From a virus (Duplodnaviria; Heunggongvirae; Uroviricota; Caudoviricetes), in IMG/VR virus record IMGVR_UViG_2778261452_000005: a stretch of DNA of 34,108 bases, one strand, 5' to 3'. Below are positions 1-29,847 of this stretch, piece by piece. How positions within the stretch are numbered: position 1 is the first letter of the stretch; the number at the start of each line of letters is the position of its first letter. Under the pieces are notes generated by a model, which did no database searches, was not told the DNA's origin, and worked only from the letters and a program-made list of their open reading frames with translations. A program made the position numbers and the translations under genes.

Positions 1-1053
1 TTACGGGGTAATGCCAACCGCTGCCGCCACTTTGTCGCCACTTGGCAGCGTTGCCAGAGGATTGAAACGGAGCGCCGTTTCCAGATGATCCGGTGCCAGA
101 TGTGCGTAACGCATAGTCATTTTTATATCGTGGTGTCCGAGAATTTTTTGTAAGGCCAGAATGTTTCCACCCGACATCATGAAGTGCGCCGCAAACGTAT
201 GGCGCAGAACGTGTGTGAGTTGACCGCGAGGGAGCACGATAGACGTTTTTTCCATCACGGATAAAAATTGAAAATAGCAGTCTGTGAAGAAATTGAACCC
301 ATCAAGCGCCATGATCTCTTCGTAAAGCTCTTTACTGATAGGGATGCTTCTGTTTTTCTTCCCCTTCGTTCTTACAAAGGTAATTCGGTATTTGGTCACC
401 TGTGAACGAGTAAGATTTACGGCTTCTCGCCAGCGTGCGCCTGTGCTTAAGCATATCTTAACTACCAGTGCCAGAATTGGGTCCTGACGTTTGCAATCAG
501 CCAGTAATTCAACAATCTGCTCATGGGTAAGCCATGCCATCTCTTTTTCTGCGATGGTGAATTTTCGCATGTTCTCCAGTGGGTTCGGATACGACCATTC
601 GCCCAGGCGGGATAGTTCGCTAAAAACACTACTTAGATAGCTTTGCTCCAGGTTAATGGTGACCGGGCTTGCTCCTTTCTTCCATTTCTCGCTGAAGTAG
701 ATCTCACCTGTCAGGCGTTTATCTCGATAGTGGGCAAACATTTTAGAGGTGAGATCAGTTGCAAGGGGATTGCCCAGAGCGTCAACCATCAGCAGCAATT
801 TGTCATAGACATGCTGCCCAGCAGTCAGTGATTTACCATGTAGTTTGAACCATAGCTCAACCACGTCTTTCAGTGTTCGACGATCCACTGATTCACCTAG
901 CCAGGGCTTTGCTTCGGTTTCTTCCATCGTGTGACGCTCAAAAGCCAGTGCTTCGCCTTTGGTGGCGAATTGTTTACGCACACGACGCCCACTACGTCCG
1001 GCGGGGTAACATTCGCAAAGCCATTTTCCTGTGGTGAGTTTTCGTACAGCCAT
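1..1053 (-). CDS. int: Tyrosine integrase (P2/186 family)
   Basis: ORF 1..1131; start chosen at ATG 1051-1053, preceded by GGAGGG at about 8 nt. Carries ARWREA, HVLRHTF and RYAHL motifs typical of tyrosine recombinases. Stop codon at 1-3. Confidence 0.9.
   Translation of the reverse strand: MAVRKLTTGKWLCECYPAGRSGRRVRKQFATKGEALAFERHTMEETEAKPWLGESVDRRTLKDVVELWFKLHGKSLTAGQHVYDKLLLMVDALGNPLATDLTSKMFAHYRDKRLTGEIYFSEKWKKGASPVTINLEQSYLSSVFSELSRLGEWSYPNPLENMRKFTIAEKEMAWLTHEQIVELLADCKRQDPILALVVKICLSTGARWREAVNLTRSQVTKYRITFVRTKGKKNRSIPISKELYEEIMALDGFNFFTDCYFQFLSVMEKTSIVLPRGQLTHVLRHTFAAHFMMSGGNILALQKILGHHDIKMTMRYAHLAPDHLETALRFNPLATLPSGDKVAAAVGITP
19..40. repeat. attL core candidate (CGCTGCCGCCACTTTGTCGCCA)
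   Basis: 21/22 identical to 31254-31275; lies inside the last codons of int. Confidence 0.65.
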
Positions 1054-1077
1054 AAAAAATGCCCTCCAATAGAGAGC

Positions 1078-1106
1078 ATTTTTACTGTATGTATAACCAG
1101 TGTCAA
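1078..1106 (-). promoter_or_regulatory. Candidate int-proximal promoter (TTGACA-N17-AAAAAT on minus strand) with LexA-like box in the spacer
   Basis: Plus-strand tgtcaa at 1101-1106 gives a perfect -35 on the minus strand. TACTGTATGTATAACCAGTG at 1083-1102 has the CTG-N10-CAG spacing of a LexA box. Confidence 0.3.
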
Positions 1107-1241
1107 TGTATGAAATCCTGCGACCATACATCTCACTGAAGCCATAATGAAGTAGGCTATTCTTTTTGCTATGTGATCATGTAACTTTTGCGGTTAACCT
1201 GTGGCTCATTTTTATTTTAGGCGCAGATATAAAAGCAAAAG

Positions 1242-1448: not shown

Positions 1449-2018
1449 CTATTTAACATACTTGACTGTTAAGCTTATAATTTTACCAATTATTTCAATG
1501 TCTTCTATCTTACATTCGAAGGCTCTGTTTCCACCCTCGACGAAGATTCTTCCACCGGGTAAACGAGTAATGTCACGGATCGTTATTTCGCCATCAATAC
1601 TTATTACCCATTTACCATCACGTATATCATCAAATTCCTTATCACAAATAAATTCAGAATTATTATCTGTGATTACAAAAAGATTCTTGAATGCCGACGG
1701 TAGAAATTCTCTATCGAAAATATAAAAACCGTCTTCACACAAGGCCCCATCAGATAATACATATTTAGCAACTTCCATAGTATTTGTATTACCTGAAGTT
1801 TGCTTTGAACCATGCCCGGTTGTGAGCCAATTAAGCGAGGTTCCTGTTTCAAGGGCGCACTGGATTACCCATTCTGCTGGGAATGAGTCACGCATGTAGC
1901 GTGTGGCGAGTGTACTTTTAGAGATTCCTAAATGATCGCACAACGCCTGTCGAGTCTTGAATCCATAAGCTTCTACCATGCGCTCTATGGCGCCTCGTCC
2001 GCCTTTCTCCAAATTCAT
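1449..2018 (-). CDS. cI: CI-type lysogeny repressor (186 CI-like)
   Basis: ORF 1449..2024; ATG at 2016-2018 with GGAG SD. Position divergent from apl/cII; EAYGF and CALETG..LNWL..G motifs resemble 186 CI as I recall it. Confidence 0.8.
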   Translation of the reverse strand: MNLEKGGRGAIERMVEAYGFKTRQALCDHLGISKSTLATRYMRDSFPAEWVIQCALETGTSLNWLTTGHGSKQTSGNTNTMEVAKYVLSDGALCEDGFYIFDREFLPSAFKNLFVITDNNSEFICDKEFDDIRDGKWVISIDGEITIRDITRLPGGRIFVEGGNRAFECKIEDIEIIGKIISLTVKYVK

Positions 2019-2143
2019 GGTCACTCCAAGTGAACTTTTATCTTGACGATTTCACTGTGCGATCGTATGTTTATGGTGTTCACAAAATACAAACGATCCG
2101 TATTCGTCCTGATTAATCATCATTAAACGAGGAATGTTGCATC
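2019..2143. promoter_or_regulatory. Lysis-lysogeny switch region (pR/pL-type) between cI and apl
   Basis: Candidate rightward promoter TTGACG (2043-2048) N17 TATGTT (2066-2071); short inverted repeat AGTGAA/TTCACT flanks the -35. pL not located. Confidence 0.45.
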
Positions 2144-3948: not shown

Positions 3949-4802
3949 GCACCATCCTGAAATGGGCGGGAAATAAAACCGCCATTATGCCAGAACTGAA
4001 AAAATACCTTCCTGCTGGCCCGCGACTGGTTGAACCTTTCGCGGGTTCCTGTGCTGTGATGATGGAAACGGATTATCCCAGCTATCTGGTTGCGGATATT
4101 AATCCTGATTTAATCAACCTCTATAAAAAGGTTGCCGCTGATTGTGAATCGTTTATATCTCGCGCCAGAGTTTTATTTGAGATCGCAAACAGGGAGGTGG
4201 CTTATTACAACATAAGGCAGGAGTTTAACTGCTCAACTGAAATTACTGATTTCATGAAAGCGGTATATTTCCTGTATCTCAATCGTCACGGTTACCGTGG
4301 TTTATGTCGCTATAACAAGAGCGGGCATTTCAACATTCCCTACGGTAATTATAAAAATCCGTATTTCCCTGAAAAAGAACTTCGCACATTTGCAGAAAAA
4401 GCCCAGCGAGCAACGTTTATCTGCGCCAGCTTTGATGAAACGCTGACGATGTTGAAGGCGGGAGATGTGGTGTATTGCGATCCGCCATATGACGGTACGT
4501 TTTCCGGTTATCACACTGATGGTTTCACTGAAGATGACCAGTATCACCTGGCATCCGTTCTTGAACATCGGTCATCAGAAGGACATCCGGTCATTGTTTC
4601 TAACAGTGACACATCCCTGATCCGTTCGCTGTATCGCAATTTTACTCACCACTATATCAAGGTAAAACGCAGCATCGGTGTGGCAGCTGGCGAGGGTAAA
4701 TCAGCAACAGAAATCATTGCTGTTTCCGGGCCGCGCTGCTGGATGGGATTTGATTATTCGCGTGGCGTGGATAGTTCTGCCGTGTACGGAGTACGTGCAT
4801 GA
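3945..4802 (+). CDS. dam: Orphan DNA N6-adenine methyltransferase (Dam-like)
   Basis: ATG 3945; EPFAGS (motif I) and CDPPY (motif IV); ATGA overlaps on both sides, with the zinc-finger gene and with A. Confidence 0.85.
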
Positions 4803-7213
4803 GTCATGCCGATATGAACAACTGCTGCGGCTTTAACGAGGCTGCCGCAGCATTCTCATGGAACAGCACGAAAAAGGCCATTAACCCTTATCTGGACCCG
4901 GCGGAAGTTGCGCCGGTTTCTACGCTTTCAAACCTGATCACTCTGTACGCTGCCGATAACGAGCAGGAACAGTTGCGCCGCGAGGCACTGAGTGATCAGG
5001 TCTGGGAGCGTTATTTCTTTAATGAATCACGTGATCCTGTCCAGCGCGAAATGGAGCAGGATAAGCTCATTAGCCGGGCAAAGCTGGCGCATGAGCAGCA
5101 GCGTTTTAATTCAGACATGGTCATTCTGGCGGACGTCAACGCCCAGCCTTCCCATATCAGCAAGCCGCTGATGCAACGTATTGAATACTTCAGCAGCCTG
5201 GGCAGGCCAAAGGCTTATTCCCGCTATTTACGTGAGACGATTAAGCCATGTCTGGAACGACTGGAGCATGTACGCGACAGTCAGCTATCTGCATCTTTTC
5301 GCTTTATGGCAAGCCATGAAGGGCTGGACGGCCTGCTGATCCTGCCTGAAATGAGTCAGGATCAGGTGAAACGCCTGTCCACCCTGGTAGCTGCGCATAT
5401 GAGTATGTGCCTTGATGCAGCTTGTGGTGATTTGTATGCCACCGATGACGTTAAGCCAGAAGAAATCCGCAAGACATGGGAAAAGGTGGCAGCGGAAACC
5501 CTGCGTCTGGATGTCATCCCACCTGCGTTTGAGCAACTCCGTCGGAAAAGAAACCGCCGTAAACCCGTGCCCTATGAACTCATTCCGGGTTCGCTGGCGC
5601 GTATGTTGTGCGCCGACTGGTGGTATCGGAAATTATGGAAGATGCGTTGCGAATGGCGGGAAGAGCAGTTGCGCGCTGTTTGCCTGGTCAGCAAAAAAGC
5701 ATCTCCTTATGTCAGCTATGAAGCCGTGATGCATAGACGTGAGCAGCGCCGTAAGTCGCTGGAGTTTTTCCGTTCTCATGAACTGGTGAACGAAGACGGC
5801 GACACGCTGGACATGGAGGATGTGGTAAACGCCAGCAGCAGCAACCCTGCGCATCGCCGCAATGAGATGATGGCCTGTGTTAAAGGTCTGGAGCTTATCG
5901 CGGAAATGCGCGGTGACTGCGCCGTTTTCTACACTATCACCTGTCCGTCGCGTTTCCATTCCACGCTAAATAACGGCAGACCAAACCCGACCTGGACAAA
6001 CGCGACGGTAAGACAAAGCAGCGATTATCTGGTCGGCATGTTTGCTGCATTTCGTAAGGCGATGCACAAAGCCGGGTTGCGCTGGTATGGCGTGCGGGTG
6101 GCTGAGCCGCATCATGATGGCACAGTTCACTGGCACCTGTTGTGTTTCATGCGCAAAAAAGACCGCCGTGCCATCACTGCATTACTGCGTAAGTTTGCCA
6201 TCCGTGAAGACCGCGAGGAGCTGGGCAATAACACTGGGCCGCGCTTTAAGTCTGAGTTGATTAACCCGCGCAAAGGAACGCCGACAAGCTACATCGCGAA
6301 ATATATCAGTAAGAACATTGACGGTCGTGGTCTGGCTGGCGAGATCAGCAAGGAAACGGGTAAATCTCTGCGTGATAACGCTGAATACGTGAATGCCTGG
6401 GCGTCTCTGCATCGTGTTCAGCAATTCCGCTTCTTTGGTATTCCGGGGCGTCAGGCTTACCGTGAACTTCGCTTGCTGGCTGGTCAGGCGGCAAGGCAAC
6501 AGGGTGACAAAAAAGCAGGTGCGCCGGTACTGGATAACCCGCGTCTTGATGCCATTCTGGCTGCTGCTGATGCTGGTTGTTTTGCCACCTACATCATGAA
6601 GCAGGGCGGCGTACTGGTTCCCCGTAAATATCACCTCATCAGAACCGCTTATGAAATCAACGAAGAGCCGACCGCCTATGGCGATCACGGCATTCGTATT
6701 TATGGCATCTGGTCACCCATTGCAGAGGGCAAGATCTGCACTCATGCAGTGAAGTGGAAAATGGTTCGTAAAGCCGTTGACGTTCAGGAGGCGGCAGCCG
6801 ACCAGGGCGCTTGCGCCCCTTGGACTCGTGGCAATAACTGTCCCCTTGCTGAAAATTTGAACCAACAGGAGAAAGATAAATCAGCTGATGGGGACACCAG
6901 AACGGATATTACCCGCATGGATGACAAGGAGTTGCACGATTTTCTGCACAGTATGAACAAAAAAGAGCGCCGGGAACTGGCTGCAAGGTTACGCCTGGTG
7001 AAACCGAAACGGCGTAGAAACTACAAACAGCGAATTACAGACCATCAACGACAGCAGCTCGTCTATGAACTGAAGTCCAGAGGATTTGATGGCAGCGAGA
7101 AAGAGGTAGATTTACTCCTTCGCGGTGGCAGTATTCCGTCAGGAGCAGGCCTGCGTATCTTCTATCGGAACCAGCGTCTGAAGGAAGATGATAAGTGGCG
7201 GAACCTGTATTAA
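4799..7213 (+). CDS. A: Replication initiation endonuclease gpA (rolling-circle, HUH family)
   Basis: 804 aa; HUH-type motif VHWHLL and paired tyrosines YIAKYISK; position after the early operon as in P2/186. Confidence 0.9.
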
Positions 7214-7305
7214 TTACGCGGGTTAACAATTCGTGCTCTTAATAATACCAGGCATATCAGGCCGATGAACGTAAAAAAACGTTTTACATCAGTAAGATTA
7301 TTATA

Positions 7306-7325
7306 TACTGTAAATATAAACAGTG
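7306..7325 (+). promoter_or_regulatory. LexA operator (SOS box) upstream of the tum-like/dinI-like operon
   Basis: TACTGTAAATATAAACAGTG: CTGT-N8-ACAG with an AT-rich spacer, about 40 bp upstream of ATG 7366. Confidence 0.75.
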
Positions 7326-7365
7326 GTTATGTATACAGTATTGCTTTGGTGTTATAGGAGGAAAG

Positions 7366-7554
7366 ATGCAGGACTATTTTTTGGAGTCTTTGAAGCTCCA
7401 GCGCATTGATTTTTTTCTTAAGCTTGTAGCGGCTAGTGAGTGTAGTGATGAAGAGAAGGGGCTGGCCCTGCAGTGGGTTTCTGAACTGACAGATGAACTC
7501 ATGGCAAAAATCAGAACCCACGAATACAACCGCTCAATGGATGTCATCAGCTGA
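7366..7554 (+). CDS. Small SOS-operon protein (62 aa), possible Tum-like antirepressor N-terminal part
   Basis: AGGAGG SD; immediately downstream of the LexA box; same position as 186 tum. Confidence 0.55.
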   Translation: MQDYFLESLKLQRIDFFLKLVAASECSDEEKGLALQWVSELTDELMAKIRTHEYNRSMDVIS

Positions 7555-7564
7555 GGTGACTTTT

Positions 7565-7798
7565 ATGCGCATTGAAATAATGATCGATAAAGAGCAGAAG
7601 ATTAGCCAGTCTACACTGGACGCCCTTGAATCCGAGCTTTACCGCAATCTGCGCCCCCTGTATCCCAAAACGGTAATTCGTATCCGCAAAGGTAGCTCTA
7701 ACGGTGTGGAACTGACCGGACTGCAACTGGACGAAGAAAGAAAACAAGTGATGAAAATTATGCAGAAGGTGTGGGAAGACGACAGCTGGCTGCATTAA
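7565..7798 (+). CDS. DinI-family protein
   Basis: 78 aa, MRIEIMIDK...WEDDSWL resembles E. coli DinI; GAGGTG SD overlaps the stop of the upstream ORF. Confidence 0.75.
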   Translation: MRIEIMIDKEQKISQSTLDALESELYRNLRPLYPKTVIRIRKGSSNGVELTGLQLDEERKQVMKIMQKVWEDDSWLH

Positions 7799-7957
7799 GA
7801 AACGTTGCTGGCGTCTGAAATTGCTTCTGGCGTCAGCAAGGTTGAACAACGAGTACAGTGAGGCGTTAGGTGTGGCGTTTATTTGATGAGTGAACGCCCG
7901 TTCTGCGACAGGTTTGGAGATTAAGGTTGAAACTACGGGCAAAATACCATCTTTTTC

Positions 7958-8383
7958 CTACTTAATTGAGTCCAGTAACAAGTTACAGTTACTCTCATTG
8001 TAGAGAGAACGAGCAATTAGTGTTACCTGCTTTCCATTCATTCCCGGCTTATCCCATAACACAGCTTCTTGCGACGCCACAAATTCAGCATAATCAATTA
8101 TGCGTTGTTCGTGATCTGGTTCCTCATAGCCAAAGTATGAGAGCGCATCGTTGTAAGCGTGGTAAGCTGCTTTCTGTAATATCTTGATATCGGCTGTAGG
8201 TACTTGCTCCGTGTAGCTAGGATCTAATTGTGTGCTACTGCCATAGAATGCACATGAAAGGTAAGATATTGATTTCTGTTGAGCTTTAGTTCCTTTCTCA
8301 TAGTTTTTAGCTGTTACCGCCTGAACTGGGACGCTAACAAAGCTTGCAACCAGAATTAAAATTAATACGTAAAAGCTTTTCAT
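7958..8383 (-). CDS. Hypothetical secreted (signal-peptide) protein, 141 aa; cargo gene
   Basis: GAGGT SD; N-terminal MKSFYVLILILVASFVSVPVQA looks like a cleavable signal peptide; AT-rich; sits at the P2 tin/old-equivalent position. Confidence 0.6.
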   Translation of the reverse strand: MKSFYVLILILVASFVSVPVQAVTAKNYEKGTKAQQKSISYLSCAFYGSSTQLDPSYTEQVPTADIKILQKAAYHAYNDALSYFGYEEPDHEQRIIDYAEFVASQEAVLWDKPGMNGKQVTLIARSLYNESNCNLLLDSIK

Positions 8384-8833: not shown

Positions 8834-9379
8834 ATGGACGTTATAACTGGAGTTGCAGAGTTTTTTCGAAAAGTACCTGCAGCATTTCTTGTGGCTATTA
8901 CATGTGTTTTAGGTCTTATACTTTTTCTGCCAGACTCTTTGGCAGTAAAAGTGGCTGTTGATGGCTTTCGTAATGAGTATAGGATTTTTATTGGACCTGC
9001 ATTTTTACTGTCTGTATCTTATTTAGTTGCAAGAGTCTATCTCTCTTTCTATGACTTACTTGGTGAAAGGCAGGCTAAGAAGGTACGCACTTCCTACCTT
9101 GAGAAGCTAACAGCAGAAGAAAAAGGATATTTAAAGTCTTATATTACCGAAGGTGTTAATTCACTTATGTGTGGGCCTGAGGATGGGGTCATGGGGGGAC
9201 TTGTGGCTAAGGGGATTACTTATAGAGCCACCAGTGTTGGGGATATGATCTACGGTTTTGCTTTCAACTTACAGCCATGGGCGCGTGAACATTTAGAGAA
9301 AAATAGTCATTTATTAGATGGGGCTATTGGGCGTGCAATGACTCCAAGAGAAAAATTAAACTTTAGATTGGGACGCTAA
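8834..9379 (+). CDS. Hypothetical inner-membrane protein (181 aa, two N-terminal TM helices); possible superinfection-exclusion/abortive-infection candidate
   Basis: GGAGGT SD; two hydrophobic helices (about aa 14-35 and 51-71) and a soluble C-terminal domain; lies between the cos-like site and the portal gene, where P2 has no gene. Confidence 0.6.
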   Translation: MDVITGVAEFFRKVPAAFLVAITCVLGLILFLPDSLAVKVAVDGFRNEYRIFIGPAFLLSVSYLVARVYLSFYDLLGERQAKKVRTSYLEKLTAEEKGYLKSYITEGVNSLMCGPEDGVMGGLVAKGITYRATSVGDMIYGFAFNLQPWAREHLEKNSHLLDGAIGRAMTPREKLNFRLGR

Positions 9380-29365: not shown

Positions 29366-29847
29366 TGATGGTGCTGGGATTGTACGTGTTTATGCTGCGC
29401 ACCGTTCCGTATCAGGAACTGCAGTATCAACGCAGCTGGCGACATGCGGCAAACAGTCGGGTAAACCGACGTCCGTCCACGCAGTTTCTGGGACCGGAAA
29501 ACGACATGCTGACGCTTTCCGGTGTTCTTATGCCGGAAATAACAGGCGGCAGGCTGTCGTTGCTGGCACTGGAGCAGATGGCAGAACAGGGGAAAGCATG
29601 GCCCCTGATTGAAGGCAGCGGCACGATTTACGGCATGTATGTGATTGAGGGACTGAATCAGACTAAAACGGAGTTTTTCCGCGACGGTATGCCGCGCCGG
29701 ATTGAGTTCACCCTGTCGCTCAAACGAGTGGATGAATCCCTGTCCGATATGTTCGGTGATCTCAGTGCGCAACTGAATAATCTGCAGGACACGGCAACGT
29801 CTGCCTTAAGCGATATCAGTAAAACGGTGGGAGGGCTGCTGTCGTGA
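29362..29847 (+). CDS. U: Tail protein (P2 gpU-like)
   Basis: 161 aa; overlaps the T stop; position as P2 U. Confidence 0.85.
   Translation: MMMVLGLYVFMLRTVPYQELQYQRSWRHAANSRVNRRPSTQFLGPENDMLTLSGVLMPEITGGRLSLLALEQMAEQGKAWPLIEGSGTIYGMYVIEGLNQTKTEFFRDGMPRRIEFTLSLKRVDESLSDMFGDLSAQLNNLQDTATSALSDISKTVGGLLS

Follow-up and report, generated by a model that had tools for sequence, protein, structure and literature searches.

Probable SOS induction operon of a Fels-2-like prophage: a split tum module with colicin-like LexA operator architecture

Are the two small genes that follow gene A in this prophage a naturally divided form of the phage 186 antirepressor gene tum, or are they a tum gene broken by a frameshift? 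Tum of phage 186 is a LexA-controlled protein known from the literature to bind and inactivate the CI repressor, preventing operator binding. A first-pass annotation had noticed a LexA (SOS) box ahead of two open reading frames (ORFs), noted a resemblance to 186 tum, and named both origins. Here we analyze this module within the window, by which we mean the whole stretch of 34,108 nucleotides.

The window is a P2/186-family prophage of the Fels-2-like kind, and the main features are collected in Table 1. About 700 bp around the module have 97.8% DNA identity to Salmonella phage Fels-2 and 91 to 98% identity to many Klebsiella, Escherichia, and Salmonella P2-like phages. The module adjoins the 3' end of gene A, and the same order is found in 186, PSP3, and Fels-2. 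A cargo slot with content unlike that of Fels-2 and 186 separates the DinI-like gene from the portal gene. It encodes a 141-aa protein on the opposite strand with a signal-peptide-like N terminus (PHROG 7437, unknown function), and it also carries a SieB-like superinfection exclusion gene.

Table 1. Features of the SOS module and its genomic setting, in window coordinates
Feature	Position	Strand	Basis or remark
Integrase	1..1131	minus	Start probably 1053
186-type CI immunity repressor	1449..2024	minus	Pfam Phage_CI_repr and Phage_CI_C; presumed antirepressor target
Apl/Cox-sized ORF, CII/CP76 homologue, Dam methylase	Between the CI gene and gene A		
Replication protein A (gpA)	4799-7213		Pfam Phage_GPA, 2.7e-127
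A-tract, possible UP-element	7273..7279	+	A-run just 5' of the -35; kept in most loci; putative function
-35 hexamer TTTACA of predicted SOS promoter	7283..7288	+	Equivalent of 186 p95; conserved spacing in related loci
Putative -10 hexamer TACTGT	7306..7311	+	Distal LexA box, nt 1 to 6
Distal LexA (SOS) box TACTGTAAATATAAACAGTG	7306..7325	+	Near-consensus
Proximal, weaker LexA box CAGTGGTTATGTATACAGTA	7321..7340	+	5-nt overlap with the distal box
Shine-Dalgarno AGGAGG of tumA-like gene	7356..7361	+	Direct reading; conserved in related loci
tumA-like gene (ORF62), 62 aa, predicted antirepressor	7366..7554	+	Homologue of 186 Tum N-terminal half, by profiles
Shine-Dalgarno GAGG of DinI-like gene	7553..7556	+	Overlaps tumA-like stop TGA, 7552-7554
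tumB/DinI-like gene, 77 aa	7565..7798 (ATG 7565)	+	Pfam DinI, 6.6e-23
Stable hairpin at operon end	7801..7843	+	MFE -23.8 kcal/mol, z-score -3.67; no T-run
Portal and terminase	Beyond the SOS module	minus	

Identity of the two genes and of the resident repressor

The upstream gene, ORF62, lies just 3' of the LexA box, where the first-pass annotation had placed it, and its protein is 98% identical to STM2728 of Fels-2. Compared pairwise by BLASTP, ORF62 aligned with neither 186 Tum nor PSP3 TumA. A phmmer search with ORF62 against 1.84 billion representative proteins returned short relatives only, nearly all of 55 to 75 aa, and did not reach Tum. A family profile built from 31 members did match 186 Tum, over residues 3 to 44, with an hhalign probability of 94.8% and an E value of 5.4e-8. 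Against a family profile of the Tum N-terminal half, the match was stronger (probability 97.8%, E value of 7.1e-13) and collinear, with residues 1 to 46 aligned on 1 to 46. The match to PSP3 TumA alone was weak (E value of 0.0036, probability 9%), and identity to the antirepressor part of 186 Tum is only about 19 to 23%. In the distant members of the ORF62 family, the likeness to the beginning of 186 Tum is plain. Proteins closely related to 186 Tum, in turn, are often stand-alone forms of 63 to 78 aa that NCBI names "Tum protein." Judged by the profile comparisons, ORF62 and the N-terminal half of 186 Tum are truly homologous, as the first-pass annotation had supposed; the homology is visible by profiles only.

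Databases are silent on what this gene does. ORF62 matched no entry in Pfam or NCBIfam, its family profile matched no structure in the PDB, and its PHROG (698) is labeled "unknown function." An AlphaFold2 model of the protein is a two-helix hairpin with a pLDDT of 86.9.

The downstream ORF belongs to the DinI family, scoring 81.3 bits against Pfam PF06183 (curated cut-off, 24.2). It aligned to E. coli DinI (PDB 1GHH) over residues 1 to 75 with an E value of 2.7e-6, in keeping with its first-pass assignment. Its protein is identical to STM2726.1 of Fels-2 (100%), 78% identical to PSP3 TumB, and 41% identical to the C-terminal half of 186 Tum; this last alignment agrees with the first-pass description of the C-terminal half of Tum as DinI-like. 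The ORF also matches positions 71 to 148 of the 151 positions of PHROG 189. The equivalog model for chromosomal E. coli DinI, NF007893, gave 42.7 bits, below its cut-off of 111. By these scores the ORF is a phage paralogue of the TumB type, not chromosomal dinI. Going by family membership, its product presumably binds RecA filaments and modulates co-protease activity.

The CI repressor of the window matches Phage_CI_repr (2.8e-33) and Phage_CI_C (2.7e-27), with a Peptidase_S24 match that stays below cut-off, and it is 33% identical to 186 CI (E value of 8e-38). We infer from this domain content that CI is not RecA-cleavable. Because it is of the 186 type and has no cleavage domain, it would need an antirepressor to respond to SOS. 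The contact between CI and antirepressor is not simply transferable from 186, since the two CI proteins are only 33% identical.

These identities bear on another reading of the locus, in which the operon is an SOS-induced accessory cassette that modulates the host SOS response or other prophages, while this prophage is induced by another route. The literature holds precedents for it: the DinI homologues of Gifsy prophages are LexA regulated, and antirepressors can act in trans on other prophages. The lack of any database function for ORF62 would also fit. However, ORF62 is homologous to the Tum N-terminal half and occupies the same position as 186 tum and PSP3 tumA, and a resident CI of this type would be left without its means of answering SOS. 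In addition, the literature states that Salmonella LT2 does not survive a lexA null mutation and that Fels-2 is the reason. We regard the accessory cassette as unlikely and read the operon as the probable induction module of the prophage itself.

A two-gene layout in related loci

Taken together, the two ORFs encode 139 aa, close to the 146 aa of 186 Tum, and they lie in different frames, as had been noted at first pass; the overlap between the stop codon of the first and the Shine-Dalgarno sequence of the second, also noted then, is real (Table 1). We compared 33 loci from different Enterobacterales genomes, among them genomes of Escherichia, Citrobacter, Enterobacter, Klebsiella, Serratia, Pantoea, Erwinia, and Tatumella. 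The loci were retrieved with a single-protein query, which biases the set towards closer relatives.

The small gene keeps its length of 62 codons in 30 of the 33 loci. Measured against the window copy across this set, its dN/dS is 0.03 to 0.17, with synonymous sites near saturation; purifying selection on it is thus strong. A DinI-like gene follows in 20 loci after a gap of 8 to 12 nt, always with its own ribosome-binding site, and GGGG or GAGG motifs recur at the gene junction. The relative frame of the second gene is free: 0 in 6 loci, +1 in 5, and +2 in 9. The remaining 13 loci have no DinI-like gene and yet retain ORF62 together with a promoter that, by sequence, is LexA controlled.

A recent frameshift in a fused 146-aa gene, leaving at most the DinI part working, would account for two ORFs in different frames with a summed length near that of Tum, and the fused form does exist in 186. 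A decaying gene is nevertheless a poor match for what the relatives look like. The 62-aa length is conserved under low dN/dS through nearly saturated synonymous change, and the DinI-like gene has its own Shine-Dalgarno sequence and start at a short, regular distance in all three frames. The search of 1.84 billion representative proteins gave almost only proteins of 55 to 75 aa, and the short "Tum protein" forms are common near 186 Tum itself. We consider a decayed tum highly improbable.

Programmed recoding would reach the fused product from an intact sequence. A +1 shift at the TGA of ORF62 would yield a 143-aa TumA-DinI fusion as the real antirepressor, and the DinI frame is indeed open across the junction (ORF 7493..7798, with GAG GTG ACT TTT ATG after the stop). 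However, the sequence 5' of the stop offers neither a stimulatory Shine-Dalgarno sequence nor, at the stop itself, any +1 slippery context of a known kind. The 13 loci that lack a DinI gene have nothing to fuse, and no single recoding route fits all three relative frames, which argues against programmed recoding as it does against a recent frameshift. Recoding is extremely improbable.

Thus, of the two origins first proposed, the natural split stands, and the frameshifted tum does not. The survey supports reading the layout as a natural, modular split, based on the three frames, the absences of the DinI-like gene, and the dN/dS of ORF62. From the same loci, the protein corresponding to the Tum N-terminal half is predicted to be autonomous, with the DinI-like protein as an optional partner.

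The operon ends in a stable hairpin that lacks a T-run and is possibly a partial terminator or an RNA-stability element. In 186, the partial terminator t95a occupies the equivalent place. In at least two of the loci without a DinI gene (L016 and L026), a hairpin of closely similar sequence comes directly after the stop codon of the tumA-like gene. A second hairpin, at the gene junction (7543-7560), had been flagged as terminator-like and was set aside, as it is not conserved in relatives.

The promoter and its LexA boxes

The near-consensus SOS box of the first-pass annotation is borne out. No other site in the window comes within 3 mismatches of the 20-mer LexA consensus TACTGT-N8-ACAGTA (this one has 3), and none of 100 shuffles of the window gave any. 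The box has the invariant CTG-N10-CAG core of the 20-bp LexA palindrome, overlaps the putative -10 hexamer, and is the sole CTGT-N8-ACAG in the window. We also ranked sites with a home-made heterology index, by which 0.002 sites as good as this one are expected per window; the index, for which 19 E. coli sites were used, serves for ranking and chance estimates only, and its values do not match published ones (umuDC scores 0.52 here, versus 2.77 published).

We compared the promoter regions of the related loci by anchoring them on the first LexA box. A LexA box occupies the distal position in 32 of the 33 loci, which span Enterobacteriaceae, Erwiniaceae, and Yersiniaceae, and also in Fels-2, PSP3, and 186. 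In almost every one of the 33 loci, TTTACA or TTCACA precedes TACTGT by exactly 17 nt, and the sequence between the two is free to vary. We read this combination of a conserved hexamer and a varying spacer as the phylogenetic footprint of a promoter with its -10 inside the LexA box. In the annotated p95 promoter of 186, the -35 is TTCACA and, after 18 nt, the -10 is TACTGT, the first 6 nt of the LexA site. The -10 is tentatively placed at TACTGT here because of that annotation and because of the fixed 17-nt distance from the -35; the hexamer is a poor match to the -10 consensus. Overall, the ORF62 operon is predicted, on strong sequence evidence, to be transcribed from a LexA-repressed promoter.

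The idea that the box is a chance AT-rich palindrome, with the operon constitutive or controlled by CI, is exceedingly unlikely: the bare 16-mer CTGT-N8-ACAG does turn up at least once in 39 of 100 window shuffles, but the full 20-mer match turns up in none and is rare by the heterology index, its distance to the -35 is fixed across several Enterobacterales families, and the sole locus without a box, L037, is a pseudogene.

A second, proximal box, absent from the first-pass annotation, overlaps the distal one. The two boxes are offset by 15 bp and share CAGTG, and the proximal box has GTG in place of CTG, which are the marks of a colicin-type double operator. Of the 33 loci, 20 show the composite pattern, CTG-N10-CAGTG-N10-CAG, which is also present in Fels-2, in ColE1, and in a colicin Y and a cloacin plasmid; 0.02 chance occurrences are expected per window. 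Another match to the pattern, at 29554-29584, is GC-rich and was judged to be chance. The 35-mer operator of the window has 91% identity to the operator of colicin Y and 89% to a cloacin operator, and the proximal boxes of the window and of the colicin Y promoter are the same. The proximal box of Fels-2 differs from that of the window at 2 positions and matches the one in ColE1 exactly. For colicins, such double boxes are reported to bind two LexA dimers and to hold expression very tightly off (PMC2994835).

186, PSP3, and the Pantoea and Erwinia relatives have a single LexA box. A MAFFT alignment of promoters had paired the 186 and PSP3 box with the proximal box; we dropped this pairing, as anchoring on the conserved -35 pairs the 186 and PSP3 box with the distal one. 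Aligned in that manner, the promoters show the proximal box as an apparent addition in the Fels-2 clade. The similarity to colicin promoters is confined to the operator, so that LexA could have imposed it by convergence, with no common descent involved.

The window has another strong LexA box at 1083-1102. It lies in the spacer of a predicted minus-strand promoter, about 30 nt 5' of the likely integrase start, and this promoter is near-consensus (TTGACA, 16 to 17 nt, TAAAAT). The box is conserved in Klebsiella phage 4LV2017 and also, although its surroundings have diverged more, in E. coli phage 813R9. It recurs in at least 120 IMG/VR contigs, and in 117 of these it lies directly 5' of the same integrase. 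In 186, int directly follows cI in one operon, whereas in the window a small gene lies between them, encoding a protein with a signal-peptide-like N terminus. A literature search on LexA control of P2-like integrases found nothing. We tentatively suggest, as a possibility we favor somewhat less than its opposite, that this prophage is wired to LexA twice, through the colicin-type antirepressor operator and through the int promoter box, and that neither has apparently been described.

Proposed induction route and relation to known modules

We consider it very likely that the module is the SOS induction operon of a Fels-2-like prophage, made up of a LexA double operator, a TumA-like antirepressor, and a DinI-like accessory protein. 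In the lysogen, LexA would sit on the distal box, over the -10, and on the proximal box just 3' of it, shutting a sigma-70 promoter (TTTACA, 17 nt, TACTGT) sited after gene A. Upon DNA damage, RecA-stimulated self-cleavage of LexA would open this promoter, and two proteins would be made from one transcript. The TumA-like helical hairpin would bind the 186-type CI and prevent it from binding its operators; with CI sequestered, the early lytic promoter would fire, and the prophage would be induced. The DinI-like protein would act as an accessory, probably on RecA filaments, tuning the SOS signal, and would be dispensable for the switch itself. For LexA binding, the CI-antirepressor contact, and SOS inducibility, we infer by analogy with 186, PSP3, and Fels-2.

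The split-tum SOS module is already known from Fels-2 and PSP3, and the present one is real but ordinary. It counts as known because Lemire et al. (2011), who cite Bunny, Liu and Roth 2002, described tum as split in two in both phages and because the PSP3 record annotates tumA and tumB. Lemire et al. (2011) also cite a personal communication that the upstream PSP3 gene has antirepressor activity. STM2726-STM2727-STM2728 are listed in an operon analysis of Salmonella treated with the mutagen MX. A literature search for TumA and TumB returned unrelated papers only.

Fels-2 is the closest system, with STM2728 and STM2726.1 after gene A under the same double LexA operator. It differs in its own downstream cargo, which consists of the 732-nt STM2726 (the length of 186 orf97) and a further ORF. 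PSP3 likewise has tumA and tumB after gene A under a LexA box, and its record annotates tumA as "similar to 5' end 186 tum; UV induction of prophage." However, the identity between PSP3 tumA and ORF62 is only about 22%, the LexA box is single and near-perfect, and the two genes are in the same frame with a stop and one codon between them, whereas those of the window are in different frames.

186 shares the promoter layout (a -35, 17 to 18 nt, and a -10 at the start of the LexA box), a CI of the same family, and a Tum whose N-terminal half is homologous to ORF62 and whose C-terminal half is DinI-like. Initiation at an internal GTG also gives 186 a DinI-like product of 76 aa. It differs in having one fused Tum, a single LexA box, and orf97 next in the operon.

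The colicin promoters (ColE1 cea, colicin Y, and cloacin) share the 35-bp CTG-N10-CAGTG-N10-CAG next to the -10. In these the operator begins just after the -10, whereas in the window its first 6 nt form the putative -10, and the controlled gene is a bacteriocin there and a phage antirepressor here. Binding of two LexA dimers is documented for the colicins, whereas the operator of the window is known from sequence alone. The Gifsy systems (GfoA and GftA) also pair a DinI homologue with a small antirepressor acting against a non-cleavable repressor, in a LexA-repressed operon. In these, dinI comes first, and the repressors form a separate gfoR/gtgR group, whereas the repressor of the window is of the 186 CI type.

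To this picture our analysis adds a statistically supported homology to the Tum N-terminal half that is missing from annotation databases, an optional DinI gene, and a colicin-type double operator. The 62-aa gene has no assigned function in RefSeq, Pfam, NCBIfam, or PHROGs; in E. coli genomes, the RefSeq labels for the two genes are "hypothetical protein" and "DinI-like family protein." The gain is therefore better annotation, namely, a TumA-type antirepressor label, and not new biology. The module is very common: among 5426 complete E. coli genomes, 1126 carry the same 611 bp.

Two modest refinements are possibly new, namely, the double operator and the int promoter box. If the first holds, induction would be tight and late, as with colicins. 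If the second holds, Int for excision would be supplied by SOS directly, not from a cI-int transcript as in 186. For the prophage as a whole, the module predicts induction by DNA damage via an antirepressor, not via repressor cleavage; therefore, agents that trigger the SOS response, such as quinolones, would be expected to induce it.

The double SOS operator and the operon downstream

The LexA box upstream of the tumA-like gene (a 62-amino-acid ORF, 7366-7554) is overlapped by a second box, forming a double SOS operator of the colicin type. The colicin Y promoter has a proximal box of exactly the same sequence as this second box. The double-box pattern is kept in 20 of 33 related loci (L-numbers; each from a different Enterobacterales genome), whereas the related phages 186 and PSP3 lack it.

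The DinI-like gene that follows is wholly absent from several of these loci, which nonetheless keep the tumA-like gene (L012, L016, L022, L026, L030-L037, and L039). All of them also keep the upstream LexA box except L037, where the tumA-like gene is a pseudogene with internal stop codons; in L035 the gene is shortened. At the junction of the two genes in the window, a small hairpin could couple or attenuate DinI translation. It is not conserved among the related loci compared.

Public annotation of the tumA-like gene is a gap. The gene occurs in approximately 21% of complete E. coli genomes, where it is labelled "hypothetical protein," and some public records name it "levan regulatory protein." It belongs to PHROG 698, listed as "unknown function," and neither Pfam nor NCBIfam has a model covering it.

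Features of the SOS operators, the operon, and the accessory genes
Feature	Coordinates	Strand	Remarks
LexA box CACTGGTTATACATACAGTA	1083-1102	minus	within promoter region 1078-1108
63-aa ORF, cysteine-rich	1242-1433	minus	between cI and int
Second LexA box	7321-7340		overlaps first box
Small 6-bp hairpin, then TTTTAT	7543-7560		spans tumA-like stop codon and DinI-like Shine-Dalgarno
141-aa protein	7958-8383	minus	PHROG 7437, E = 3.8e-98; no known function
SieB-like superinfection exclusion protein	8834-9379	plus	Pfam SieB, 4.5e-25

Accessory genes

Variable cargo occupies the interval that separates the SOS operon from the portal gene. In the window this interval encodes the SieB-like protein and the 141-amino-acid protein, whose N terminus resembles a signal peptide by eye; Fels-2 and 186 instead each carry a 732-nt ORF (STM2726 and orf97, respectively).

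The repressor gene cI and the integrase gene int are contiguous in 186, whereas here the 63-amino-acid ORF is inserted between them. The ORF has matches to NCBIfam PRK10040 ("hypothetical protein") and to PHROG 6000, a family of unknown function, and its N terminus also looks signal-peptide-like by eye. The inserted ORF is probably an independently acquired extra gene (a moron), and its insertion may explain why int needs a promoter of its own.

A LexA box in the integrase promoter

That promoter is near consensus on the minus strand (TTGACA, 16-17 nt, TAAAAT), with a strong LexA box in its spacer. By a home-made heterology index, suited to ranking only, this box outscores the distal box of the tumA-like gene. 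The box lies approximately 30 nt upstream of the likely integrase start, ATG 1053, from which the protein begins MAVRKLTTGKW. Conservation of the box extends to Klebsiella phage 4LV2017 and E. coli phage 813R9, and at least 120 IMG/VR contigs carry it; in 117 of these the same integrase gene lies immediately downstream. We found no literature on LexA control of P2-like integrases. Together, the placement of the box within the promoter and its conservation suggest, at the level of sequence, that int is under direct LexA control.
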